In this document: one piece after another, positions 5,797-64,000 of the stretch
Layout of the letters: each line of letters starts with the position of its first letter
Numbering within the stretch: the first letter of the stretch is position 1
Source of the DNA: Escherichia coli
Lineage (GTDB): Bacteria > Pseudomonadota > Gammaproteobacteria > Enterobacterales > Enterobacteriaceae
NCBI RefSeq assembly: GCF_041886205.1
Contig: NZ_CP169029.1
DNA length: 64,000 nucleotides
Strand: one strand, 5' to 3'
Translations under genes and position numbers: made by a program
Notes under the pieces: model-generated
Seen by the model: the letters and a program-made list of their open reading frames with translations, nothing else
Database searches by the model: none
Told to the model about the DNA's origin: nothing

Positions 5797-6304
5797 ATAA
5801 TATGCTCTCCATTCATTGTTTTTATGTTTCCATAGTATTCAATACATCAGATAATTCATTTTGATTAAGAACGACCCAGAAAGTATATTTAAAGGTGAAT
5901 AGCAAAGCGTGATGAAGATCGCATATTACTTTTACACCAGGGTGTGGAGGTATCGTGTTTCAAAAAGTGTGTCTATTTTAAATATCACTCATTGATTTAT
6001 AGACATTTTTTCCTTATAAAAAACACTAAATTCTGTACAAGAATATTTTGTATCTTCTATTACTTTCTCCAGTAATAACTCACCATCCAGTCATAACTTA
6101 AATCTGCTTGTTCATAATCTTAATTTTTGTAAATGAAAAGGCACATAAGAGTTAAAATAAACAATGAACTAAAGATTAATTATGCAAAAATGCGAGGCGT
6201 CTTCAGGATTAGAATCGATAAAACAGAATGGGTTAAAAAGAGCGATATAATAGCGGCGGGTGCTTGAGGCTATCTGTCTCAGGCATTAGCTGAACGGCAG
6301 ATAG

Positions 6305-6359
6305 AGAAAAGCCCCGAGTGATATTTTACTATCAACCCGAGGCCCCCTATATGCTGAAC
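6305..6359 (-). ncRNA. sokC: sokC antisense RNA of the hokC/mokC type I toxin-antitoxin locus (approximate)
   Basis: Placed by position: antisense to the mokC translation-initiation region as in hok/sok loci; not independently delimited from sequence. Confidence 0.4.
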
Positions 6360-6560
6360 ACATGTAGAGTGCCTCTTACTGACCGTAAGGTCAAGGAGAA
6401 GAGAGCAATGAAGCAGCATAAGGCGATGATTGTCGCCCTGATCGTCATCTGTATCACCGCCGTAGTGGCGGCGCTGGTAACGAGAAAAGACCTCTGTGAG
6501 GTTCACATCCGAACTGGCCAGACGGAGGTTGCTGTTTTCACGGCTTACGAATCCGAGTAA
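6351..6560 (+). CDS. mokC: MokC, overlapping regulatory reading frame of hokC
   Basis: MLNTCRVPLTDRKVKEKRAMKQHKAM... within ORF 6318..6560; shares its stop with hokC. Confidence 0.85.
   Translation: MLNTCRVPLTDRKVKEKRAMKQHKAMIVALIVICITAVVAALVTRKDLCEVHIRTGQTEVAVFTAYESE
6408..6560 (+). CDS. hokC: HokC (Gef) small membrane toxin, type I TA
   Basis: 50-aa MKQHKAMIVALIVICITAVVAALVTRKDLCEVHIRTGQTEVAVFTAYESE. Confidence 0.92.
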   Translation: MKQHKAMIVALIVICITAVVAALVTRKDLCEVHIRTGQTEVAVFTAYESE

Positions 6561-9143: not shown

Positions 9144-9231
9144 CTTTTTTAAATTGCCCCTAGATGAATGCACGGGCGGAGAGGAAATTCCCCTTCGCCC
9201 GTGTCAGTATAATTACCCGTTTATAGGGCGA

Positions 9232-17640: not shown

Positions 17641-17765
17641 TGCCGGATGCGGCGTGAACGCCTTATCCGGCCTACAAAAGCATGCAGATTCAATATATTG
17701 CAGAATTCACGTAGGCCTGATAAGACGCGCCAGCGTCGCATCAGGCGCTGAATGCCGGATTGTTA
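17641..17765. repeat. REP (repetitive extragenic palindromic) cluster
   Basis: gccggatgcggcgtgaacgccttatccggcctac ... gtaggcctgataagacgcgccagcgtcgcatcaggcg in inverted arrangement. Confidence 0.8.
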
Positions 17766-22974: not shown

Positions 22975-23000
22975 GGTTGTTACCTCGTTACCTTTGGTCG

Positions 23001-23036
23001 AAAAAAAAGCCCGCACTGTCAGGTGCGGGCTTTTTT
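23001..23036 (-). terminator. thr attenuator
   Basis: Minus strand GCCCGCACCTGACAGTGCGGGC hairpin followed by a run of 8 T, between thrL and thrA. Confidence 0.9.
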
Positions 23037-23054
23037 CTGTGTTTCCTGTACGCG

Positions 23055-23123
<69 letters not shown>

Positions 23124-31204: not shown

Positions 31205-31738
<534 letters not shown>

Positions 31739-31740
31739 GA

Positions 31741-31818
31741 CGGATAAGGCGTTCACGCCGCATCCGGCATTCGGTGCACGATGCCTGATGCGACGCTGCC
31801 GCGTCTTATCAGGCCTAC
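31741..31818. repeat. REP element pair
   Basis: ggcgttcacgccgcatccggca ... gcctgatgcgacgctgccgcgtcttatcaggcctac. Confidence 0.8.
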
Positions 31819-36186: not shown

Positions 36187-36350
36187 AATGCCGGATGCGG
36201 CGCGAACGCCTTATCCGGCCTACAAAACCAGCAATTTCAATACGTTGTAAAACTGTAGGCCTGATAAGACGCGGTAAGCGTCGCATCAGGCATTGAGCAC
36301 CGAATGCCGGATACGGCGTGAACGCCTTTTCCGGCCTACAACAGCCTTAG
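36187..36350. repeat. REP cluster (BIME-like) downstream of ettA
   Basis: Three REP units: gccggatgcggcgcgaacgccttatccggcctac, gtaggcctgataagacgcggtaagcgtcgcatcaggc, gccggatacggcgtgaacgccttttccggcctac. Confidence 0.85.
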
Positions 36351-49312: not shown

Positions 49313-49528
49313 ATGCCGGATACGGCCTACGGTTCGGCACAGACTTGTAGGCATGATAAGACGCGACAAGCGTCGCATCAGGCATTGTGCGCCAACTGCC
49401 GGATGCGGCGTGAACGCCTTATCCGGCCTACGGTTCGGCACAAACCTGTAGGCATGATAAGACGCGACAAGCGTCGCATCAGGCATTATGCGCCGACTGC
49501 CGGATGCTGCCTACGAAGGGTAAACTAC
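49313..49528. repeat. Tandemly duplicated REP/BIME unit (about 101-bp period, 2 copies)
   Basis: ctacggttcggcac...gtaggcatgataagacgcgacaagcgtcgcatcaggcatt...gccggatgc at 49327 repeats at 49428 with a few substitutions; fills the spacer between convergent yjjW and yjjV. Confidence 0.85.
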
Positions 49529-50307
49529 CCACTAACGCTAAACACCGCATACGTATTATTAAGCAACACTTCGGCAATCTCATCTTCTGGTTCCGGGCGC
49601 AACTCGCAAAGCACGTCAAACACCCGCGCAGCCTGTTCCGGGCGGTTAGGCTGCCCCTGAAAGCCGTTGAGCGGCATATCCGGCGCGTCGGTTTCCAGCA
49701 ACAACGATGCCAGCGGTAATTTTGCGATGACATCGCGGGTTTTACTGGCGCGTGGATAGGTGATAGTACCGCCTACGCCGATTTTGTAGCCCAGCTGTAA
49801 AAACCGCTCGGCCTGTTGCAGGCTGCCGGAAAAACCGTGAACCACGCCAGTGCGCGATAAATCGTGGCGTTTAAGATGCATCGCCAGTTTGTCGTGTGTG
49901 CGCCGTGAATGCAGGATCACCGGCAGATCGTAGCGTTTCGCCAGTTTCAGTTGTTCGTCGAGTAACCACTGCTGCCTCTCAAATTGCGGATCGTCGCCGA
50001 AGAGATCCAGACCGATCTCCCCCACCGCCACCACCTTCGCCGGACGCCTTTCCAGCGCCTGCTGTAGCTGATCAAGAGACACATCGCTATGTTTTTCCAA
50101 CATACCAGGATGCAAGCCCAATGCGGCATACAGCGGTTGATATTTTTCCGCTAACGCCTGCACGCGGGCAAAATTTTCCGCCTCGGTTGCCGGAACAATG
50201 ATCTTGCCTACGCCCGCTTGTGCCGCGCGTTGCAGGCTGGCCTCTTCATCGCCACTAAACGGCGGAAAATCAAAATGGCAGTGGGTGTCGATAAAACGGC
50301 AAATCAA
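49525..50307 (-). CDS. yjjV: TatD-family metal-dependent hydrolase YjjV
   Basis: 260-aa MICRFIDTHCHFDFPPFSGDEEASLQRAAQAGVGKIIVPATEAENFARVQALAEKYQPLYAALGLHP... Confidence 0.93.
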   Translation of the reverse strand: MICRFIDTHCHFDFPPFSGDEEASLQRAAQAGVGKIIVPATEAENFARVQALAEKYQPLYAALGLHPGMLEKHSDVSLDQLQQALERRPAKVVAVGEIGLDLFGDDPQFERQQWLLDEQLKLAKRYDLPVILHSRRTHDKLAMHLKRHDLSRTGVVHGFSGSLQQAERFLQLGYKIGVGGTITYPRASKTRDVIAKLPLASLLLETDAPDMPLNGFQGQPNRPEQAARVFDVLCELRPEPEDEIAEVLLNNTYAVFSVSG

Positions 50308-51413
50308 GCCAGATCCTCATTGTTAAATGTCGGGTCGTTCGCCTGCGGAGCATCGCTCACTTCGGCAACCAGCGTATCGTTGGCGACTGGCGCAGGCGGA
50401 ATAACGATCGATTCCGGCGTCACCACTGGCACCAGATGGCGGGTAAGCGGCGCTTTTTCAGTTAATAGCTTGCCAACCGTGGCGAGGAAATATCGCCCGC
50501 ATAAACGCCCAAGTTTATAGTCTTCACGCAGCGCCGGAATCCGACTGCCAAGCGCGATACTATGTAATGGCTTCGGTGGATAAATTTCGAATATCCGCAG
50601 CTTGCCCGGTGGTTTCTCAATAAATTGCTGGATGTCACGATAGCTGGTTTCATGATGCTGCACCAGATTGACCAGCGGCTGCAGGCTACTGTCACCCAGC
50701 CAGCGTTCCATGCGTTTGAACCACTGCGGCGTGTAGTACATTTGTGACGGCACAGTGCGAATGACGACCAACGTTTTAGCGCCCTGCCTTGCCGCCTCTT
50801 TAACCGGAATCGCATCACTGATCCCGCCATCCAGGTAGTTAATGCCTTCCAGCGACACTCCGCTACGATAAAAGCCAGGTATCGCACTGGAGGCGCGAAT
50901 CACATCCAGCCAGTTTTGTTTGGTTGGTAAAAAGTAATTCGGCGCATAGTCATCCTGACGACAGGCGCACATATAAAACGATTTGCCGCTGTCAAACAAC
51001 CGCGCGGCGGTATCCATTTGCAACGGCATCTGACTTGCGGTGGCCTCCACCAGCCAGTCGAGATCGATAAGATTTCCTCCACGCACAAAGCGCAATGGAT
51101 CGAAAAATTCGCGTTTTGTGGTATAGCGCATGATGACTTTGCGCGCGTAACCGGGCTGATTGCAGATATACGCCGAGAGGTTCTGCGCCCCGGCAGATGT
51201 GCCGAGATAAAGATCGAAAGGATTAAACTGCGCGCGCATAAACTCATCCAGCACGCCAGCCGTGAAAATTCCACGCTGTCCGCCGCCTTCGCACACCAGA
51301 GCTATTCGTCCAGGCTGGAACGGCCTTAGCGACAACGGCGCAATATTACCAAGCGTTACAGGTATTCGCTGCCCCACCTCTGCCTTCCTGTTTTTGTTGT
51401 GAAAGAATGACAA
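50304..51413 (-). CDS. yjjU: Patatin-like phospholipase YjjU
   Basis: ORF with CEGGGQRGIFTAG oxyanion motif and GTSAGA (GxSxG) nucleophile motif; start codon uncertain (track start 51413); stop overlaps yjjV start by 4 nt. Confidence 0.85.
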   Translation of the reverse strand: MSFFHNKNRKAEVGQRIPVTLGNIAPLSLRPFQPGRIALVCEGGGQRGIFTAGVLDEFMRAQFNPFDLYLGTSAGAQNLSAYICNQPGYARKVIMRYTTKREFFDPLRFVRGGNLIDLDWLVEATASQMPLQMDTAARLFDSGKSFYMCACRQDDYAPNYFLPTKQNWLDVIRASSAIPGFYRSGVSLEGINYLDGGISDAIPVKEAARQGAKTLVVIRTVPSQMYYTPQWFKRMERWLGDSSLQPLVNLVQHHETSYRDIQQFIEKPPGKLRIFEIYPPKPLHSIALGSRIPALREDYKLGRLCGRYFLATVGKLLTEKAPLTRHLVPVVTPESIVIPPAPVANDTLVAEVSDAPQANDPTFNNEDLA

Positions 51414-51498
51414 AGTAACGCAATTTATTATTCGCTAAAACCGCAAAAGCCAGTCCGCTGGACTGGCTTTGGATAAAATTTTCTTAATGGTCTGAAAT

Positions 51499-51660
51499 CT
51501 AGGGTCGTTTTCGGCCCATGAACAAACTCACCAGGAACAGAATAATCCCGACGACAAAGACAATTTTAGCTGCGCCTGCAGCGGTACCGGCCAGACCACC
51601 AAACCCAAGTGCGGCGGCGATTAACGCGATAACCAGAAATATGATGCCCCAACGAAACAT
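51499..51660 (-). CDS. ytjA: Small membrane protein YtjA (DUF1328)
   Basis: [53 protein letters not shown]; track ORF 51499..51690 has a 10-codon extension. Confidence 0.85.
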
Positions 51661-51786
51661 AAGCGTCTCCTTTACCATAGTTAATGTCACCGCTTGATAT
51701 GAGCGTGAAAATCACTCAATGCGATATTTTTAGTGTGGTGCACATCGCGCCTCCCGACAAAGTTCGGGAGGACGAATTACGACGAA

Positions 51787-52392
51787 TTACTTAGTTTTCA
51801 GATCATTTTTAACGCTTTTCACACCATCTACCGCTTTGGCGATACTTTCAGCACGGTCGCTCTGTGCCTGGGAATCGACGGTACCGGAGAGCTGAACCAC
51901 GCCGTCGGTGGTTTCAACTTTCACATGACGGGAAGGGACGATATCGTCCGCCAGCAGTTTGGCTTTGATTTCACTGGTGGTGGCGGTGTCACCCGCGTAG
52001 CCCTTCACCGAGCCTTCTTTAGCGTCGCGAACGTGCAGTTTGTCGCTGACAGAGGTCACCCCTTCAACGCCTTTCGCCACTTTCACTGCCTCTTCGGCCT
52101 GGGCCTGGCTTTCAACGAAACCGCTCAGGGTCACGACTTTTTGATCGGTTTTTACAGAGATATCGGTGCTCTTGATGTTGTCATGATCCACCAGGGCCGC
52201 CTTCACTTTCGCGGTGATGGCGCTGTCATCCATGAAATTACCGACTTTATTCATAGAGCTATCGACTTTTTGCCCTGCGCTTTCATTGGTAGTCTGTGCG
52301 TTGTTTTCCGCGTAGGCAGAGCCGGTCGCGACGGCAGAGGTCAACATTACAGCCAGCAGAGTTTTCGAAATCTTCAGTCTTGTCATAGTCAT
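51787..52392 (-). CDS. osmY: Osmotically inducible periplasmic protein OsmY (two BON domains)
   Basis: [98 protein letters not shown]...; track ORF 51787..52470 has a 26-codon extension. Confidence 0.95.
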
Positions 52393-52784
52393 CGATTTAT
52401 TCCTGTATGTTTGCTCGTAATTTGAGCCTGGCAACACGAGGTTGCATTGCTGAATAGGGAGAGACTTCACCCTCTACAGAAGTCAATGGTCGCCATCACA
52501 AAAGCGATGGGTGATGAATAACGACCATTACAGCCTCTGAATCAGTTATTAATATCGGTAGAATGACAATCGACGGCTTTAGATACTGATATCTACGCAT
52601 TGAACGGTATTTAACGCCGTCAGAAATGTCATTACTTTGTTAAATATAGATCACAATTTTGAAACCGCTCGGGATATCAGCGAAAACATAAGCAAAAGTG
52701 AATGTTTTAAGAACATTCCGTAAGCGGCTAATAAGGAAGGGAAATTGACAGGGCGCAGCGGCTACCGCGCCCTGGAGGCAAGAA

Positions 52785-54374
52785 TTAATGCTCGCGGGTC
52801 TGGTGGAACTGAACGTCCGGATAACGTTCCTGCGCCAGGCGCAGGTTGACCATGCTGGTAGCGATGTAAGCGAGGTTATCGCCGCCATCAAGCGCCAGTT
52901 GGCTTTCGTTCTTACGCTTGAACTCTTCGAATTTCTTCGCGTCCGCACATTCTACCCAGCGGGCAGTGGCAACGTTGACTGATTCATATACTGCTTCAAC
53001 GTTGTATTCGCTCTTCAGGCGCGATACCACCACATCAAACTGCAGCACACCAACAGCACCAACGATCAAATCGTTGTTGGAGATCGGACGGAACACCTGC
53101 ACCGCGCCCTCTTCGGAAAGCTGTACCAGCCCTTTGAGCAGCTGTTTTTGCTTCAGCGGATCTTTCAGGCGGATACGACGGAACAGTTCTGGTGCGAAGT
53201 TCGGAATACCGGTGAACTTCATCATCTCACCCTGGGTAAAGGTGTCGCCGATCTGAATAGTGCCGTGGTTGTGCAGGCCGAGGATATCGCCCGGATACGC
53301 TTCTTCAACGTGCGAACGGTCGCCCGCCATAAAGGTCAGCGCGTCGGAGATAACCACATCTTTCGCAGTACGCACCTGGCGCAGCTTCATGCCTTTTTCA
53401 TATTTACCGGATACTACGCGCATAAACGCCACGCGGTCGCGGTGTTTCGGGTCCATGTTGGCCTGAATTTTAAATACGAAGCCGGTAAATTTGTCTTCGC
53501 TCGCCTCTACGGTACGGGTATCAGTCTGACGCGGCATCGGCGCAGGGGCCCACTCCACCAGGCCATCCAGCATATGATCAACGCCGAAGTTACCCAGCGC
53601 AGTACCGAAGAATACCGGAGTGATTTCGCCCGCAAGGAACAATTCTTTGTCGAACTCGTTAGACGCGCCTTTCACCAGTTCCAGTTCGTCACGTAGCTGC
53701 TGTGCCAGATCTTCACCAACCGCAGCGTCGAGATCCGGGTTATTCAGCCCTTTAACAATACGGACTTCCTGAATCGTGTGGCCTTTACCGCTCTGATAGA
53801 GATAGGTTTCGTCTTTATAAAGGTGGTAAACGCCTTTAAACAGCTTGCCGCAGCCAATCGGCCAGGTGATCGGTGCGCAGCCGATTTTCAGCTCGTTCTC
53901 AACTTCATCGAGCAGTTCCATCGGGTCGCGGATATCACGGTCAAGTTTGTTCATAAAGGTGAGGATCGGCGTGTCGCGCAGACGGGTAACTTCCATCAGC
54001 TTACGGGTACGATCTTCAACACCTTTTGCGGCGTCGATAACCATCAGGCAGCAGTCCACCGCCGTCAGGGTACGATAGGTATCTTCCGAGAAGTCTTCGT
54101 GCCCCGGGGTGTCTAGCAGGTTAACCAGGCAATCGTGATACGGAAACTGCATCACAGACGTAGTAATGGAGATCCCACGCTGCTTTTCCATCTCCATCCA
54201 GTCCGACTTAGCGTGCTGGTTGGAACCACGGCCTTTTACTGTACCGGCGGTCTGAATGGCCTGTCCGAACAGCAGCACCTTCTCGGTGATGGTAGTCTTA
54301 CCGGCGTCCGGGTGAGAAATAATGGCAAAAGTGCGGCGCTTCGCCACCTCTTGCAAATAAGGAGACAACGTCAT
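52785..54374 (-). CDS. prfC: Peptide chain release factor 3 (RF3)
   Basis: [72 protein letters not shown]...; GTPase motifs; track ORF 52785..54401 has a 9-codon extension. Confidence 0.97.
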
Positions 54375-54464
54375 AATTCTTTCTTCTTGAGTAAGCGGCA
54401 TCGCGCCGCGCTTGTTGAAAACGAAAAATTGCGGCTATTTTACCCATCAACGGGGGGGAGGCAA

Positions 54465-55142
54465 TCAGTGTTTACACAGGAGCTGCTCCAGTTCGTGCAA
54501 CGAAGAAACGGTCCAGGTGGGCGCGATGCCTTCTGGTTGCTCGCGATGGTGCGCATTCAGCCAGCAGGTCGCAAGCCCGGCGTTGATGCCACCGAGAATA
54601 TCGGACTCGGCAGTGTCGCCAACCATCAGCACGCGTGAACGGTCAGGATTGCCCGCCTGTTCCAGCGCATAATCGAAAATTTTCTTATTCGGTTTGGCAA
54701 CGCCAACTTCTTCGGAAATCACCAGCAAATCGAAGTAATCACGCAGGCCCGTGCGTTCCAGACGCACTTGCTGCAAGGCGCTAAAGCCGTTGGTGATGAT
54801 GCCGATTTTAGCGTTGCCACGAATGGCGTTAAGCAGGGAAACCGCCCCCGGAAGCGGCGTGCAGATTTCCGCCATCGCATTAATAAAGGCATCGTTAAGC
54901 AAGCCTGCTTCAACTTTCAGCCGTTCGGCCCAGCTCTCAAAACGCCCGTGCTGAAGCTGTAATGAAGTGATCGCGCCGTTTTGATAATCCACCCACAGTG
55001 GCTTGTTAACGGCCTGATAGTCCTGAAAATCTTCAGCGGTAAAGGTGACGCTGTAATCAAGAAACATCCGCTGCAGGCCGGTGAATGAGTCAAATGTAAA
55101 CAGCGTTTCATCGGCATCAAAGAAAATCCAGTCCCACTTCAT
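54465..55142 (-). CDS. yjjG: HAD-family pyrimidine 5'-nucleotidase YjjG
   Basis: 225-aa [68 protein letters not shown]... Confidence 0.95.
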
Positions 55143-55156
55143 TATTCCACCTTGTC

Positions 55157-55603
55157 TTACATACTGATTGGCAACGCCATGATGATGGCGTCTTCGCGAC
55201 CGTCCGTGGTGGGGTAGTAATTGCGGCGAATCGTCGCCTCGTTAAAGCCTAAACTTTCGTACAGGGCAATGGCGGCAGCGTTTGAAGCACGGACTTCCAG
55301 CCATAGTGTCGCCACGCCGCGTTTTTCCAGTTCGTCGATCAGATGTTCCAGCAGCGCCCTTCCCAATCCCTGACGCTGATAGTCAGGATCGACCGCAATA
55401 TTGAACAATGTAGCTTCATCCAGCACCACTTGCGTAATCGCAAACGCCGCCATTTTGCCGTTTTGCGTTAACTGAAAGTTGAGATAACGCTCGCCCTGGT
55501 TGCTGGCAAAGGTTTTTTCACTCCACGGAAAGGCGTGGGCGCGTTGTTCAATGTGGTAAGCCGCTGGTAAATCAGTCGTTTCGAGGGAAGAAATCGTGTT
55601 CAT
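55157..55603 (-). CDS. rimI: Ribosomal protein S18 alanine N-acetyltransferase RimI
   Basis: 148-aa [96 protein letters not shown]... Confidence 0.96.
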
Positions 55604-55985
55604 ATGTGCAAATTTGTTGCCATAACGCGGCGCGTGCCGTTGGGTTTGCCCGTAATTCGGTGAGCGCCGGTGATGCCACCTGAGCGCCTTCCAGTGATAG
55701 CGGTTCGTCAGTACCCAACCGCCAGCTGTTGCAGCGACTGCCTTGCGGCAGCATCGCGATTTTTTCTGGCGTCAGTTGCAGCACTTGATCGGGGCTGACG
55801 GTTAATGCGCGCAGAACATCGCTCACTAAAGGATCAGTCAGGGCGGGAAGATCGTTTGCCACCATCACCAGACGGACGTGTGCCGGGATCGCAATGGCAA
55901 TCTCCCCCTGCAACGCGCCAGGGCGACGCAGCGACCACTGGGTAATGCCCAGTTGCTGTAACTGCCAGTCTCGTCGGGATGTCAT
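55572..55985 (-). CDS. holD: DNA polymerase III psi subunit HolD
   Basis: 137-aa MTSRRDWQLQQLGITQWSLRRPGALQGEIAIAIPAHVRLVMVANDLPALTDPLVSDVLRALTVSPDQVLQLTPEK...; 32-nt overlap with rimI. Confidence 0.95.
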   Translation of the reverse strand: MTSRRDWQLQQLGITQWSLRRPGALQGEIAIAIPAHVRLVMVANDLPALTDPLVSDVLRALTVSPDQVLQLTPEKIAMLPQGSRCNSWRLGTDEPLSLEGAQVASPALTELRANPTARAALWQQICTYEHDFFPRND

Positions 55986-56087
55986 AGCGAATCGCTCCTG
56001 TTGTCAGGGGCGCAAATATAGCAAATTCGTCGATACCGCGCCAACATATGGCTATAATCGCCGCCAGTATCAATTGAGGAGCATTCC

Positions 56088-57119
56088 ATGTCTGCATTTA
56101 CCCCGGCAAGTGAAGTCTTGCTGCGTCACAGTGATGATTTCGAACAAAGCCGTATTCTGTTTGCCGGAGACTTACAGGATGACCTGCCCGCGCGTTTAGA
56201 TACCGCGGCCAGCCGTGCTCATACCCAGCAATTCCACCACTGGCAGGTATTAAGCCGCCAGATGGGGGATAACGCCCGTTTCAGTCTGGTCGCCACGGCG
56301 GATGACGTCGCAGATTGCGATACGCTGATTTACTACTGGCCGAAGAACAAACCGGAAGCCCAGTTCCAGTTGATGAATTTACTTTCTCTGCTGCCGGTGG
56401 GGACGGATATTTTTGTCGTTGGCGAGAACCGCAGCGGCGTGCGCAGCGCCGAGCAGATGCTGGCAGATTATGCGCCGTTGAATAAAGTCGACAGCGCTCG
56501 TCGCTGTGGCCTCTATTTTGGTCGTCTGGAAAAACAGCCGGTATTTGATGCCGATAAATTCTGGGGCGAATACAGCGTCGATGGCCTGACAGTCAAAACG
56601 CTGCCTGGCGTGTTTAGCCGCGACGGTCTGGATGTCGGTAGCCAGTTGCTACTCTCGACGTTAACCCCGCACACGAAAGGTAAAGTGCTGGATGTCGGCT
56701 GTGGCGCGGGTGTGCTTTCAGTTGCCTTTGCGCGCCATTCACCGAAAATTCATCTCACCTTGTGCGATGTCTCTGCCCCGGCGGTAGAAGCCAGCCGTGC
56801 GACGCTTGCGGCCAACGGTGTTGAAGGTGAAGTCTTTGCCAGCAACGTCTTTTCCGAGGTGAAAGGTCGTTTTGATATGATCATCTCCAACCCGCCGTTC
56901 CACGATGGGATGCAAACCAGCCTGGATGCGGCGCAAACGCTGATTCGCGGCGCGGTGCGTCATCTTAATAGCGGCGGCGAGCTGCGAATTGTAGCGAACG
57001 CCTTCCTGCCTTATCCGGACGTGCTGGATGAGACATTTGGCTTCCACGAAGTGATCGCGCAAACAGGGCGCTTCAAGGTGTATCGCGCCATTATGACCCG
57101 CCAGGCGAAGAAAGGTTAA
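56088..57119 (+). CDS. rsmC: 16S rRNA (guanine1207-N2)-methyltransferase RsmC
   Basis: 343-aa [62 protein letters not shown]...; [15 protein letters not shown] motif. Confidence 0.96.
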
Positions 57120-57137
57120 TTATCTCGCCGAATACCG

Positions 57138-57172
<35 letters not shown>

Positions 57173-57308
57173 AAAACCTGCACGTTAGTTTCCTGATGGA
57201 CATTTTTCCAGCAATTACACCTCCGGCGATAATTAACTATTGACGAAAAGCTGAAAACCACTAGAATGCGCCTCCGTGGTAGCAATTCTTTTTAAGAATT
57301 GATGGTAT

Positions 57309-57395
57309 GCGAAGGTGGCGGAATTGGTAGACGCGCTAGCTTCAGGTGTTAGTGTCCTTACGGACGTGGGGGTTCAAGTCCCCCCCCTCGCACCA
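57309..57395 (+). tRNA. leuQ: tRNA-Leu (anticodon CAG), copy 1
   Basis: GCGAAGGTGGCGGAATTGGTAGACGCGCTAGCTTCAGGTGTTAGTGTCCTTACGGACGTGGGGGTTCAAGTCCCCCCCCTCGCACCA, 87 nt, long variable arm, encoded CCA. Confidence 0.95.
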
Positions 57396-57423
57396 AAAAC
57401 CACGTTGATATTGCTCGCACTGG

Positions 57424-57510
57424 GCGAAGGTGGCGGAATTGGTAGACGCGCTAGCTTCAGGTGTTAGTGTTCTTACGGACGTGGGGGTTCAAGTCCCCCC
57501 CCTCGCACCA
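57424..57510 (+). tRNA. leuP: tRNA-Leu (anticodon CAG), copy 2; one substitution (C to T) in the variable arm versus copies 1 and 3
   Basis: Same 87-nt sequence except GTTAGTGTTCTTACGGAC in place of GTTAGTGTCCTTACGGAC. Confidence 0.95.
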
Positions 57511-57544
57511 AACGAGGCGATATCAAAAAAAGTAAGATGACTGT

Positions 57545-57631
57545 GCGAAGGTGGCGGAATTGGTAGACGCGCTAGCTTCAGGTGTTAGTGTCCTTACGGA
57601 CGTGGGGGTTCAAGTCCCCCCCCTCGCACCA
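57545..57631 (+). tRNA. leuV: tRNA-Leu (anticodon CAG), copy 3
   Basis: Identical to copy 1; ends ...CCCCCCCCTCGCACCA. Confidence 0.95.
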
Positions 57632-57669
57632 ATTATCTTTACTTCCTTTCTTGTTTCTTCCTTGATTTT

Positions 57670-57906
57670 TCATCCCTGATTCAAATTCATTATCATCAGC
57701 ATGATGCCAGCAATAAGCGCCAGGCACGATGGTAGCAAAACGTAATGCCGTAACTGTTTGTGATACAGCATCACCGGCGTCAATACTAATCCCATCAGAA
57801 TGACAATCCGCCATTGATCAGGCGATAAATCCGCATACATCAGCCCTGCAATCAGCAATCCTGGCAGCAACACTCCCCAGCCACTGCCCAGCGTACGTTG
57901 CAACAT
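57670..57906 (-). CDS. yjjZ: Small inner-membrane protein YjjZ (DUF1435)
   Basis: MLQRTLGSGWGVLLPGLLIAGLMYADLSPDQWRIVILMGLVLTPVMLYHKQLRHYVLLPSCLALIAGIMLMIMNLNQG; track ORF 57670..58017 has a 37-codon extension. Confidence 0.8.
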   Translation of the reverse strand: MLQRTLGSGWGVLLPGLLIAGLMYADLSPDQWRIVILMGLVLTPVMLYHKQLRHYVLLPSCLALIAGIMLMIMNLNQG

Positions 57907-58046
57907 GGTTTCATCTCTTTCATTGATAATGATAACCAATATCATATGATAATTTTTATCATTTGCAAGCCAGAGAAATCCCTTGCTATCGGATAAACCT
58001 ATCGCTAGGATTAGCAATCATTATCATTTAGATTACTATCCCGATT

Positions 58047-58835
58047 ATGGCCTATCGTTCCGCACCGCTCTATGAAGATGTTATCTGGCGAACGCATCTC
58101 CAGCCACAGGATGCTGGGCTTGCACAAGCCGTACGTGCGACGATCGCCAAACATCGTGAACATTTGCTCGAGTTTATCCGCCTGGATGAACCCGCTCCGC
58201 TTAACGCCATGACGCTGGCGCAATGGTCATCACCGAATGCGCTAAGTTCTCTACTCGCGGTCTATTCCGATCATATCTATCGCAACCAACCAACGATGAT
58301 CCGCGAGAACAAACCGCTGATCTCACTATGGGCACAATGGTATATCGGCCTGATGGTGCCACCATTAATGCTGGCGCTACTGACGCAGGAAAAGGCATTA
58401 GATGTGTCGCCGGAACATTTCCACGTTGAGTTTCACGAAACCGGCCGTGCCGCCTGTTTCTGGGTCGATGTGTGTGAAGATAAAAACGCAACACCACATT
58501 CGCCGCAGCAGCGAATGGAAACGTTAATCAGCCAGGCGCTGGTTCCGGTTGTGCAGGCACTAGAAGCGACCGGAGAGATCAACGGCAAACTTATCTGGAG
58601 TAATACCGGTTATTTGATCAACTGGTATCTCACTGAGATGAAGCAACTGCTCGGCGAGGCGACGGTTGAATCGCTGCGCCATGCCCTCTTTTTTGAGAAA
58701 ACGCTCACGAACGGTGAAGATAATCCACTCTGGCGTACCGTGGTACTGCGCGACGGCCTGCTGGTGCGCCGCACTTGCTGCCAGCGTTATCGCTTACCGG
58801 ATGTGCAGCAATGTGGCGATTGTACGCTGAAATGA
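58047..58835 (+). CDS. fhuF: Ferric-siderophore reductase FhuF (2Fe-2S)
   Basis: 262-aa MAYRSAPLYEDVIWRTHLQPQDAGLAQAVRATIAKHREHLLEFIRLDEPAPLN...; C-terminal CCQRYRLPDVQQCGDC cluster motif. Confidence 0.96.
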   Translation: MAYRSAPLYEDVIWRTHLQPQDAGLAQAVRATIAKHREHLLEFIRLDEPAPLNAMTLAQWSSPNALSSLLAVYSDHIYRNQPTMIRENKPLISLWAQWYIGLMVPPLMLALLTQEKALDVSPEHFHVEFHETGRAACFWVDVCEDKNATPHSPQQRMETLISQALVPVVQALEATGEINGKLIWSNTGYLINWYLTEMKQLLGEATVESLRHALFFEKTLTNGEDNPLWRTVVLRDGLLVRRTCCQRYRLPDVQQCGDCTLK

Positions 58836-58842
58836 AAGCACT

Positions 58843-58862
58843 GCCGGGGAAGTAAACCCGGC
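58843..58862. terminator. Hairpin between convergent fhuF and bglJ
   Basis: gccgggg-aagtaaa-cccggc stem-loop; no strong T-run, so terminator assignment is tentative. Confidence 0.35.
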
Positions 58863-58872
58863 ATAATGCGGA

Positions 58873-59550
58873 TTAATAGGGATGCAACACATTACTTGCT
58901 TCGCAATGCCGCATACATAACAGAATATCTGCGGCCTCCAACAACCCTGCATCAGAACTGACGCCCAGTTTCGACATCACATTAAATTTATGTGCACGGA
59001 TCGTTTTGATATTGCGTTTAAGCTGCTCGGCAATTTGTGTCATTGAGTAGCCACGCGACATAAAGCGCAATATTTCTCTCTCCGTCGGGCTTAACGTCCG
59101 GCTTTGGTTAATGTACCACTGATTGTTCAGTCGGTCGGTCGCCTGACGTACACCATTTAATGACAAAAAGAGTTCCTGATGAAAAATCTCCAGCGTTGAC
59201 GCTTTACTTAATACACCGTCCAGCGGTGATGGCGACAATGAACCAATCAGCCGAGCTTCAATATCATCATCCGCAATAACTAAACGCCGGGTACGCGGAA
59301 ACTTAATCGCCAGTTCAGTCAGGCAAGATAATCCCTCTCTGCGCTCACTTCTCATGGCAGAAAAAGAAAAAATGACCGCCGCAAATGAGATCCGCGACAT
59401 GGCATCCTGAAATGACTCCTGACTGGTATAGGTATGGAGCTTATAAGGGTTACCCGCAAACTTTCTGAATAAACTCTCAATACCGATACTGCTCATGACG
59501 CATTTTTCTATGAGTGCGACATTTCTCTTCTTAATTCGGCTGTGTTCCAT
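58873..59550 (-). CDS. bglJ: LuxR-family transcriptional activator BglJ
   Basis: 225-aa [63 protein letters not shown]...; C-terminal LuxR HTH. Confidence 0.93.
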
Positions 59551-60233
59551 TCTGCGGCATCTCCATAAACAGAAGGCAAGTTAAGTTCTCTTGCACCCTG
59601 CGCGCTATTTATCCATGCATACATTTCAGCGTTGCTGTGAATTGCCAGTCGACGCATCGCACTGTTTTTTTGGGCGCTGATAGTTTTATTACTTTTCTTA
59701 AGCAACGAAGCTATCTGGTTGATGCCCCATCCTTTACCTAATAGCCGCAGTACCTTGCGCTCTGAAAGAGTGAGAATGACGGAGCGATAGCTAAAATCAT
59801 GAGTTTCAGTCATTGCCGGAGAGGTCAGCATGGCGCTGATACGCTCTGCGTGCGTATTGCCGGAACGTACGGTCTTGACCAGATTCTCAATGGGTTCAAC
59901 ATCAGACAATAACGTCGCCGTAGGGCACATGAGCAATTCTACTGCCTGGGAATACCAGGAGCGTGACACCATGAAAACCCAGTGAATTTCCCGATATTGT
60001 GAAATTAAAGAATAATAATGCTCACAAACAGAACGTGGATCTTCACTTTCACCGGCTAAATCAGCAATGACTAATCCGGAACGACGTAATTGTAATAAGG
60101 TAAGGTCCTCCGCAGAGGCGCTGGATATTATTTCATATTCAGGGAAGTGAGTCCTCATGACCTCTTTTAACCCTGCTTGCATAACAGGTATTTTACTGAT
60201 AACAATTCCATTTTTGCAGCATCCTGGCAACAT
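59508..60233 (-). CDS. yjjQ: LuxR-family transcriptional regulator YjjQ
   Basis: 241-aa [69 protein letters not shown]...; overlaps bglJ start. Confidence 0.93.
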
Positions 60234-60851
60234 ATTTCCTCCACATCCACTGTCTAAAAATCATGATGGTTTATTCAGGATATTCATTCCTTAAATGTTT
60301 CCAGCAAATTAATAGATTAAGCGAATAAATTATCCTTAGCATTCACTTTCATATCAGCATACTCCTGCTGCACAACAACTCCACTGCATGTGTCAGAAGG
60401 TTAGCATCAAATGATAACCTGGTGAAATAGCCTGGAGACATTTAAAATATCTACATTAAGTTGTTAGGAATACTTAATGAAAAACAGAAATCACATTCAT
60501 TTAATTTATAATTAAATGATATCCCTTCCCGCAGAATGAAAAATCACACAACCAATATTTATTCAATGAAATCTGATGGTTTTAACTTGTTAACATTAAA
60601 AAACGTGCCCGGTTATCTATAATCCTGATTCGTAAAGGCCAAACAATAAATTCATTATAGTGATAATATTCATGTGATAGTTTGTTTGCGGCGAGAGATA
60701 ATTCGCTTTTTATCACCGAGCTTGTCCCGATAACCAGGATTAATCAGCGCAATTTTGATCTTAACCTACCGCAAAACAACCGTGCTTCATGATACAAATG
60801 GATTCTCATTATCTGAACAATACGCAGCACGTCTATGACAAAGGGCGAGTT
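60234..60851. promoter_or_regulatory. About 600-bp AT-rich divergent control region between yjjQ-bglJ and yjjP
   Basis: Markedly AT-rich, non-coding in all frames, with curved-DNA-like A/T tracts; typical of nucleoid-protein-silenced promoter regions. Confidence 0.5.
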
Positions 60852-62086
<1,235 letters not shown>

Positions 62087-62192
62087 AATTGCCTCGCTTA
62101 AGCACACGGATGAGAGACAGCCTCCTCTCCTCCGTGTGTTACTATAAAAGTTATCTCCCTTCTCGTTCATCGTTCCATATTTGAGAAACAGT

Positions 62193-62732
62193 ATGTCTTC
62201 CAGAGTTTTGACCCCGGACGTCGTTGGTATTGACGCCCTGGTACACGATCACCAAACCGTTCTGGCAAAAGCTGAAGGCGGTGTGGTTGCCGTATTTGCT
62301 AACAATGCCCCGGCGTTTTATGCCGTCACGCCTGCACGCCTGGCTGAACTGCTGGCGCTGGAAGAAAAGCTGGCGCGTCCGGGAAGCGATGTCGCTCTGG
62401 ACGATCAACTCTATCAGGAACCGCAAGCCGCTCCCGTTGCTGTACCCATGGGGAAATTCGCCATGTATCCGGACTGGCAACCCGATGCCGACTTTATCCG
62501 CCTGGCGGCGCTATGGGGCGTGGCACTAAGAGAGCCGGTGACCACCGAAGAACTGGCCTCATTCATTGCCTACTGGCAGGCGGAAGGTAAAGTCTTTCAC
62601 CATGTACAGTGGCAACAAAAACTGGCGCGCAGCCTGCAAATCGGTCGTGCCAGCAACGGCGGACTGCCGAAACGAGATGTGAATACGGTCAGCGAACCTG
62701 ACAGCCAAATTCCACCAGGATTCAGAGGGTAA
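62193..62732 (+). CDS. dnaT: Primosomal protein DnaT
   Basis: [81 protein letters not shown]...; track ORF begins 62181. Confidence 0.95.
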
Positions 62733-62734
62733 CG

Positions 62735-63472
62735 ATGAAAAACGTTGGCGACCTGATGCAACGCCTGCAAAAAATGATGCCTGCCCATATCAAACCTGCT
62801 TTCAAAACGGGTGAAGAACTACTGGCCTGGCAGAAAGAACAAGGGGCGATCCGCTCCGCCGCTCTCGAACGTGAAAATCGGGCGATGAAAATGCAGCGCA
62901 CCTTTAACCGCTCCGGTATTCGTCCACTGCATCAGAACTGCTCCTTTGAGAACTATCGCGTTGAGTGTGAAGGGCAAATGAATGCGTTAAGCAAAGCGCG
63001 CCAGTATGTCGAAGAGTTTGACGGCAACATCGCCAGCTTCATCTTTTCTGGTAAGCCAGGAACCGGCAAAAACCATCTGGCGGCAGCAATCTGCAACGAG
63101 CTGCTGCTACGCGGTAAATCCGTATTGATCATCACCGTGGCCGATATTATGTCGGCGATGAAAGATACCTTCAGGAATAGCGGTACCAGCGAAGAACAAC
63201 TGCTTAACGATCTGAGCAACGTTGATCTGCTGGTGATCGATGAGATCGGCGTGCAGACCGAATCGAAATACGAAAAAGTGATCATCAACCAGATCGTCGA
63301 TCGCCGCTCTTCTTCCAAACGCCCAACCGGGATGCTGACCAACAGTAATATGGAAGAGATGACCAAGTTGCTGGGCGAACGCGTGATGGACCGTATGCGC
63401 CTGGGTAACAGTTTGTGGGTGATCTTCAACTGGGATAGCTACCGTAGCCGGGTAACGGGTAAAGAGTATTAA
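62735..63472 (+). CDS. dnaC: Helicase loader DnaC
   Basis: 245-aa MKNVGDLMQRLQKMMPAHIKPAFKTGEELLAWQKEQGAIRSAALERENRAMKMQRTFNRSG...; Walker A GKPGTGKNHLAAA; 2-nt spacer after dnaT. Confidence 0.97.
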   Translation: MKNVGDLMQRLQKMMPAHIKPAFKTGEELLAWQKEQGAIRSAALERENRAMKMQRTFNRSGIRPLHQNCSFENYRVECEGQMNALSKARQYVEEFDGNIASFIFSGKPGTGKNHLAAAICNELLLRGKSVLIITVADIMSAMKDTFRNSGTSEEQLLNDLSNVDLLVIDEIGVQTESKYEKVIINQIVDRRSSSKRPTGMLTNSNMEEMTKLLGERVMDRMRLGNSLWVIFNWDSYRSRVTGKEY

Positions 63473-63520
63473 TCCCCGTTTCTGGCGGTATACTGCGACA
63501 CAATTCCACCTTGAGTAATG

Positions 63521-64000
63521 ATGATGAAAACTGTTAAACATCTTCTGTGCTGTGCCATTGCCGCCAGCGCATTAATTTCCACCGGGGTGCATGCTGCGTC
63601 CCGGAAAGATGCGCTCTCCAGCGCCGCCAGCGAACTTGGCAACCAAAACAGCACGACACAGGAAGGCGGTTGGTCGCTCGCGTCATTAACTAACTTGCTT
63701 AGCAGCGGGAACCAGGCCTTAAGCGCAGATAACATGAACAACGCCGCAGGCATTCTGCAATACTGCGCGAAGCAAAAGCTGGCTTCGGTAACCGATGCCG
63801 AAAACATCAAGAATCAGGTACTGGAAAAACTGGGCCTGAACAGTGAAGAGCAAAAAGAAGACACCAACTATCTGGATGGCATTCAGGGTTTGCTGAAAAC
63901 TAAAGATGGTCAGCAACTCAATCTGGATAATATCGGAACGACTCCGCTGGCAGAAAAGGTGAAAACCAAAGCCTGCGATCTGGTGTTAAAGCAGGGGCTG
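63521..64000 (+). CDS. yjjA: YjjA (DUF2501) secreted protein, 3' end cut by window edge
   Basis: Hand translation MMKTVKHLLCCAIAASALISTGVHAASRKDALSSAASELGNQNSTTQEGGWSLASLTNLLSSGNQALSADNMNNAAGILQYCAKQKLASV... runs to window end; start may be one codon earlier (63518). Confidence 0.8.
   Translation, partial: MMKTVKHLLCCAIAASALISTGVHAASRKDALSSAASELGNQNSTTQEGGWSLASLTNLLSSGNQALSADNMNNAAGILQYCAKQKLASVTDAENIKNQVLEKLGLNSEEQKEDTNYLDGIQGLLKTKDGQQLNLDNIGTTPLAEKVKTKACDLVLKQGL

Follow-up and report, generated by a model that had tools for sequence, protein, structure and literature searches.

The leuQ-leuP-leuV locus

The DNA analyzed here (the window) is a stretch of 64,000 nucleotides from E. coli. ARAGORN finds three tRNA genes within it, all tRNA-Leu(CAG) genes on the + strand. 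They lie in tandem between rsmC on one side and yjjZ and fhuF on the other, with spacers of 28 and 34 nt. The locus is the ordinary E. coli leuQ-leuP-leuV operon, which has already been described. The genes and their neighbors are:

56088-57119, + strand: rsmC (16S rRNA m2G1207 methyltransferase), a 343-amino-acid ORF that is rsmC in K-12 and in E. coli strain 537-20; the upstream neighbor that fixes the locus
57309-57395, + strand: leuQ, tRNA-Leu(CAG) with C at gene position 48 (ARAGORN, alignment, Rfam); equal to K-12 b4370
57396-57423, + strand: leuQ-leuP spacer, 28 nt, AAAACCACGTTGATATTGCTCGCACTGG (by script); the same in K-12
57424-57510, + strand: leuP, tRNA-Leu(CAG) with T at gene position 48 (ARAGORN, alignment, Rfam); equal to K-12 b4369, the T included
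57511-57544, + strand: leuP-leuV spacer, 34 nt, AACGAGGCGATATCAAAAAAAGTAAGATGACTGT (by script); the same in K-12
57545-57631, + strand: leuV, tRNA-Leu(CAG) with C at gene position 48, equal to leuQ (ARAGORN, alignment, Rfam); equal to K-12 b4368
57670-57906, - strand: yjjZ (DUF1435), an ORF so annotated in K-12 and strain 537-20; the convergent downstream neighbor
58047-58835, + strand: fhuF, an ORF beyond yjjZ, so annotated in K-12 and strain 537-20

A preliminary description of this DNA had reported three tandem tRNA-Leu(CAG) genes, the first and third identical and the second carrying a C to T change. ARAGORN and Rfam recover the same three genes at the same coordinates. Alignment by script gives a single variable column among the three 87-mers, at position 48, in the exact context GTTAGTGT(C/T)CTTACGGAC, and it agrees on both spacer lengths. 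With three near-identical 87-mers a chance origin is not in question. Each copy scores 48.5 bits against the Rfam tRNA model RF00005 (gathering score 29), with the full model, positions 1-71, matched. The anticodon cag lies at position 35 in all three genes by ARAGORN, and the Rfam alignment places it in a loop of 7 nt, UUCAGGU. The Rfam alignment also reveals an A·C mismatch at pair 5:68 of the acceptor stem in all three genes (gene positions 5 and 79; window positions 57313 and 57387 in leuQ). Enterobacter, Lelliottia and Huaxiibacter have T for C79 in their third array copy, and so regain an A-U pair.

The remaining Rfam matches in the window are all expected for this core region of the E. 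coli chromosome, which extends from nhaA and dnaK, by way of thr, arcA, deo and rsmC, as far as dnaC. They are:

6258-6410, + strand: sok antitoxin RNA, adjoining mokC
9144-9221, - strand: tpke11
17676-17718, + strand: ES036
23000-23119, - strand: Thr operon leader
31738-31815 (+ strand), 36258-36336 (- strand) and 49350-49428 (- strand): three copies of naRNA4 (REP-derived)

In K-12 MG1655 the array occupies NC_000913.3 4606079-4606401 on the minus strand, with leuQ (b4370) adjoining rsmC, leuP (b4369) in the middle, and leuV (b4368). The annotated order gives a transcription order of leuQ-leuP-leuV, so the middle copy is leuP. From approximately 57187 to 57723 only two bases, at 57224 and 57226 and both upstream of the promoter, separate the window from K-12; the remainder is 100% identical. 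The identical stretch covers the promoter, leader, all three genes, both spacers and the trailer, and includes the T of leuP. This T is the K-12 reference base, and is therefore not a strain-specific mutation. The sequence elements flanking the genes are:

57139-57168, strand not assigned: single REP-type hairpin between rsmC and leuQ, an inverted repeat with 14-nt arms
57240-57267, + strand: sigma-70 promoter, -35 TTGACG, 16-nt spacer, -10 TAGAAT (consensus scan, 10 of 12 matches); 100% identical to K-12
57632-57690 (approximate), + strand: 3' trailer, pyrimidine-rich and unstructured, the presumed region of Rho-dependent termination (sequence, PMC2190699)

A G+C-rich discriminator, GCGCCTCC, directly follows the -10 element at 57268-57275, a match at the level of sequence. 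By its position it might act as the discriminator of the leuQPV promoter, and transcription would start at around 57274-57277. A scan of the + strand 3' of leuV found no terminator-like hairpin.

The window does differ from K-12 in the flanks. There are scattered SNPs in yjjZ, and a segment of 78 nt that contains REP sequence and lies between rsmC and the promoter in K-12 is missing. The rsmC-leuQ intergenic region (57120-57308) is 188 nt here, compared with 267 nt in both K-12 and strain 537-20. A three-way alignment places the junction at approximately 57186, bounded by the direct repeat AAACCTGCACG(T/C)TAG. We considered whether the missing segment marks an unusual or engineered strain and, as the short form is a polymorphism common in E. 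coli, discarded the idea. The closest complete E. coli genome is that of strain 537-20, but the best identity over 14 kb (window 50000-64000) is only 99.4%. The strain may be poorly represented among complete RefSeq genomes; alternatively, recombination may have made the region a mosaic. Yet the leuQPV block is 100% K-12-like.

The variable base of leuP

The single base that sets leuP apart lies in the variable arm of the tRNA:

57471, + strand: T in leuP (C in leuQ and leuV), pairing with the G at gene position 55 (57478)

The variable region has 15 nt, and includes a 4-bp stem GUCC/GGAC (positions 46-49 with 54-57) and a UUAC loop. The pairs of the stem are G-C, U-A, C-G and C-G, and position 48 belongs to the third of these. 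T at this position turns the C-G pair of leuQ and leuV into a U·G wobble, so that pairing is kept. When the cloverleaf was imposed the calculated free energy was -30.0 kcal/mol for the C form and -27.1 kcal/mol for the T form, and for the variable arm alone the values were -5.2 and -2.3 kcal/mol respectively. The U·G wobble thus costs approximately 2.9 kcal/mol in the nearest-neighbor model, by which the variable-arm helix of leuP is kept, though weakened. Unconstrained minimum free energy folding gave an imperfect structure for copy 1 that nevertheless included the variable-arm hairpin, and a structure for copy 2 that was not a cloverleaf, with weak z-scores for both. Such folds of unmodified tRNA are often wrong; this test was dropped in favor of explicit evaluation of the cloverleaf. 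The Rfam score is blind to the difference between C and T, since RF00005 treats the variable arm as an insertion that it does not model.

The preliminary description had attached weight to the substitution on the grounds that identity elements of tRNA-Leu lie in the region of its variable arm. For E. coli LeuRS this is not so (PMC9976931). Its identity set comprises the discriminator A73, the A15:U48 pair and G18G19 (PMC9976931). According to the same review, leucine identity in E. coli does not depend crucially on the long variable arm, whose sequence and folding show no correlation with leucylation, and armless variants stay active (PMC9976931). Since the sequence of the arm does not set leucine identity, the earlier reason for concern falls. 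All three copies carry the leucine identity set alike, i.e. A at gene position 84 directly before CCA, A15, G18 G19, and U at gene position 59, the last base of the variable region (using our inferred mapping of gene positions onto standard tRNA numbering). Given that E. coli LeuRS reads A73 and the tertiary core of the D and T loops and not the arm's sequence, the U form is in all likelihood the same tRNA in a near-neutral and fully functional version.

The base difference in leuP is already in print (PMC12472396; bioRxiv 10.1101/2020.02.21.958157). The tRNA-seq preprint lists leuP apart from the identical group of leuQ, leuT and leuV (bioRxiv 10.1101/2020.02.21.958157), and a 2026 paper remarks that Leu has several near-identical gene versions (PMC13276491). 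In the latter work an amber suppressor derived from leuP was abundant and active (PMC13276491). Our literature searches found no function or phenotype specific to leuP.

Distribution of the C and T forms

We examined the frequency of the two forms in complete E. coli genomes by BLAST. A 651-nt query was uninformative on the question of T or C, its alignments being broken into pieces by the three repeats and the 78-nt indel, and it was replaced by short queries. With queries below 100 nt a single mismatch suffices to take a hit out of the 99% identity band. Of 5429 complete records, 4536 (~84%) contain the T-variant 87-mer as an exact copy, and ~16% have no exact T copy at all. Of the 4976 records with the leuQ-leuP junction, 4522 matched a leuP query anchored in spacer 1 at 100% identity. 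When the T of this 95-mer was changed to C, 564 records gave a 100% match. The junction is lacking in ~453 of them (~453 of 5429), where the match is partial and confined to the tRNA, leaving ~111 genomes (~2%) with a genuine C at leuP. The preliminary description had left it open whether the substitution was a natural difference among the leuQPV copies or a strain-specific mutation. These frequencies, and the identity of the window with K-12 MG1655 across the three genes, decide for the former. Comparison with the reference leuP, the check that had been proposed, gives 100% identity with the T included, and so the base is a known variant.

The array is not invariant within the species. E. coli strain 300709 (L124 615-936) has intact spacers and a C-C-C array, and its leuP has been converted to C. 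E. coli O157:H7 strain Z1814 (L002 1201-1286) has a single hybrid gene, preceded by the leuQ leader and followed by the leuV trailer; this array has collapsed through recombination between repeats. The fourth copy of the tRNA, leuT, has T in only 4 of 5425 E. coli genomes, and C in the rest.

A run of eight C nucleotides spans the T-stem and acceptor strand (57380-57387, 57495-57502 and 57616-57623), with eight C in all three genes of the window. The run has seven or nine C in some public assemblies (Z1814, copy 1 of 300709, Citrobacter koseri L066 and C. amalonaticus L051). The 8-C run of these genes has been described as a strong indel hotspot by Foster and colleagues (PMC8510543), and the altered runs could be real indels at this hotspot or homopolymer sequencing errors.

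Outside E. coli we scanned a collection of species-representative genomes with the T-variant 36-mer, retrieved the T-containing loci and ran ARAGORN on them. At least 120 T-variant loci are found outside E. coli, in Enterobacterales. Among the matches listed the genera include Escherichia, Salmonella, Citrobacter, Klebsiella, Raoultella, Enterobacter, Kosakonia, Proteus, Morganella, Xenorhabdus, Photorhabdus and others. They include at least 31 three-gene arrays with the order C-T-C among the matches listed, in genera such as Escherichia, Salmonella, Citrobacter, Klebsiella, Raoultella, Kosakonia, Phytobacter and Pseudocitrobacter. Arrays with the order C-C-T or T-T-C are few, and among the matches listed the middle gene is by far the commonest place of the T in three-copy arrays that have one. 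Two-gene arrays are also found, at least 15 of them T-C (Xenorhabdus) and at least nine C-T (Proteus and Morganella), again among the matches listed.

In 26 of the at least 31 C-T-C arrays each of the three genes matches the window at 100%, while spacer 1 is 82-100% and spacer 2 65-100% identical. Identity over the 100 nt upstream is 71-99%, which argues for orthology of these arrays, and over the 100 nt downstream it is 62-93%. With the C-T-C order and the genes kept at 100% while the spacers have diverged, the C/U difference of the middle copy predates the split of these genera. The U variant is ancient, and probably harmless.

T is also found at leuT. Among the matches listed at least 39 loci outside E. 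coli are argX-hisR-leuT-proM-type operons with T at leuT; examples are L006, L021, L032, L050, L056 and L098, and Escherichia whittamii is among the T-at-leuT loci. In Enterobacter cloacae and E. hormaechei (complete chromosomes) and in Klebsiella pneumoniae (a 5.3-Mb scaffold) the sole T match among those listed is at leuT, and the T copy of the array is therefore not universal. The slot of the second U copy differs between E. coli and its relatives. The scan was of T-containing loci, so losses of the middle U are under-sampled in these comparisons.

Other lineages have changed other positions of the arm. There are C to T changes at the neighboring stem position 49, changes in the loop of the arm, and one compensatory change of U-A to C-G. 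The stem changes, with the compensatory pair, indicate that the variable arm is constrained as a helix, and not in sequence.

Interpretation and comparison with known operons

We consider it highly probable that the window carries the standard leuQ-leuP-leuV operon, in which leuP has its normal reference allele, and that this allele is old, most likely functional and near-neutral. Near-neutrality is what we infer from the above, and the positional conservation of the U copy could instead reflect selection.

That alternative is the one that survives best, although we judge it unlikely. It holds that the U variant is a functionally distinct copy, with the C-G and U·G forms both kept by selection, for example on stability, on modification and turnover, or on sensitivity to tRNA nucleases. 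Selection would explain why gene conversion has not erased the U copy from its position. Conversion and deletion do occur in E. coli, as the C-C-C array of 300709 and the collapsed array of O157:H7 illustrate, and so erasure of the U copy is mechanistically possible. Our literature searches on concerted evolution of tandem E. coli tRNA genes gave nothing relevant. The C-T-C order persists with perfectly kept genes in at least 31 arrays from many genera while the spacers diverge, and the T of T-bearing three-copy arrays lies in the middle far more often than at either end among the matches listed. In addition both forms coexist in the two-copy arrays of Morganellaceae, and U is present at leuT in at least 39 loci outside E. 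coli. Yet the cross-genus set was gathered as T-containing loci, an ascertainment bias that leaves losses under-sampled, and E. cloacae, E. hormaechei and K. pneumoniae have T solely at leuT among the matches listed. The ~16% of E. coli records with no exact T copy come from strains that evidently thrive, and C-C-C and collapsed arrays are tolerated. At leuT only 4 of 5425 E. coli genomes depart from C. These differences in the slot of the T, together with strains that have none, indicate that the placement of the U copy is flexible. Moreover the sequence of the variable arm is without effect on leucylation (PMC9976931), and the literature searches yielded no leuP-specific phenotype. In its strongest form the alternative would have the C-G and U·G forms as an ancient pair that Enterobacterales actively keep, with U in the middle slot (at leuT in most non-E. 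coli genera) since before the genera split; to this too we give only a small chance. If the pair were kept on purpose, selection would act on an undescribed property of the wobble pair, such as stability, modification, turnover or escape from tRNA nucleases.

It is far less probable that leuP is a decaying or impaired copy with a weakened variable arm, tolerated since three other copies exist. The calculated cost of ~2.9 kcal/mol for the U·G pair is in its favor, as is the occurrence of collapsed and C-C-C arrays, by which leuP is dispensable in nature. But the rest of leuP is perfectly kept across genera, unlike a decaying gene, its leucine identity elements are all intact, and U is the sole leuT allele found in many genera among the matches listed. 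The tRNA-seq work treats leuP as an expressed species (bioRxiv 10.1101/2020.02.21.958157), and the leuP-based suppressor reaches a high level and works (PMC13276491). On the perfect cross-genus conservation and the published evidence of function we rejected leuP as a pseudogene. Least probable of all is a new strain-specific mutation, or an error of sequencing or of reading (the preliminary description had allowed for a mistake in its own transcription): nothing speaks for it beyond the change being one base, the T is present in the raw window sequence and is the K-12 reference base, and it recurs both across E. coli (4536 of 5429 records) and in other Enterobacterales (at least 120 loci). We regard a mutation in this strain, a misreading and decay into a pseudogene as effectively excluded.

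On the preferred reading, of an old and near-neutral reference allele, the window holds a textbook leuQPV operon, and the substitution matters little. It has some practical consequence, in that tRNA-seq and variant-calling pipelines should handle leuP apart from leuQ, leuT and leuV. The array itself varies within E. coli, through C-C-C forms, collapse to a single gene and indels in the 8-C run. The conservation of C-T-C across genera is a small evolutionary curiosity, and could be used to gauge rates of gene conversion among tandem bacterial tRNA genes.

Expression of the operon has been studied in K-12 by Mohanty and Kushner, who found that RNase P separates the three tRNAs and that RNase E is not needed (PMC2190699). 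The operon has no Rho-independent terminator and is presumed to be Rho-terminated, and the trailer is cleared by PNPase and RNase II (PMC2190699). By analogy, processing and termination in this strain probably proceed as in K-12. One strong sigma-70 promoter would give a single transcript, comprising a short leader and the three tRNA-Leu(CAG) ('tRNA-Leu1') genes with their encoded CCA. RNase P would cleave each 5' end and so separate the three tRNAs, whose 3' ends exonucleases would trim; transcription would end by the action of Rho, and PNPase and RNase II would clear the trailer. In Table 1 of PMC2190699 the leuQ and leuP trailers are swapped compared with that paper's own text and with the sequence, where leuQ is followed by CCAAAAACC and leuP by CCAAACGAG. 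The legend to Figure 5 of the same paper calls the four Leu1 genes 'identical', overlooking the difference in leuP.

Beyond the K-12 operon itself, the counterparts of this operon include the C-T-C arrays of other Enterobacteriaceae, for example Salmonella enterica subsp. arizonae, Klebsiella oxytoca and Escherichia albertii. As in the window, the U form is in the middle, but spacer 2 is 28-34 nt, compared with 34 nt here. Within E. coli the leuT gene encodes the same 87 nt as leuQ and leuV, in the C form, but it is outside the window in another operon. Unlike leuQPV, it is processed by RNase E and not by RNase P alone (PMC2190699). The valV-valW operon likewise has tandem near-identical tRNA genes that are separated by RNase P without RNase E, and a Rho-dependent terminator (PMC2190699). 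It contains two valine tRNA genes at a different locus, and the parallel with leuQPV is one of mechanism only.
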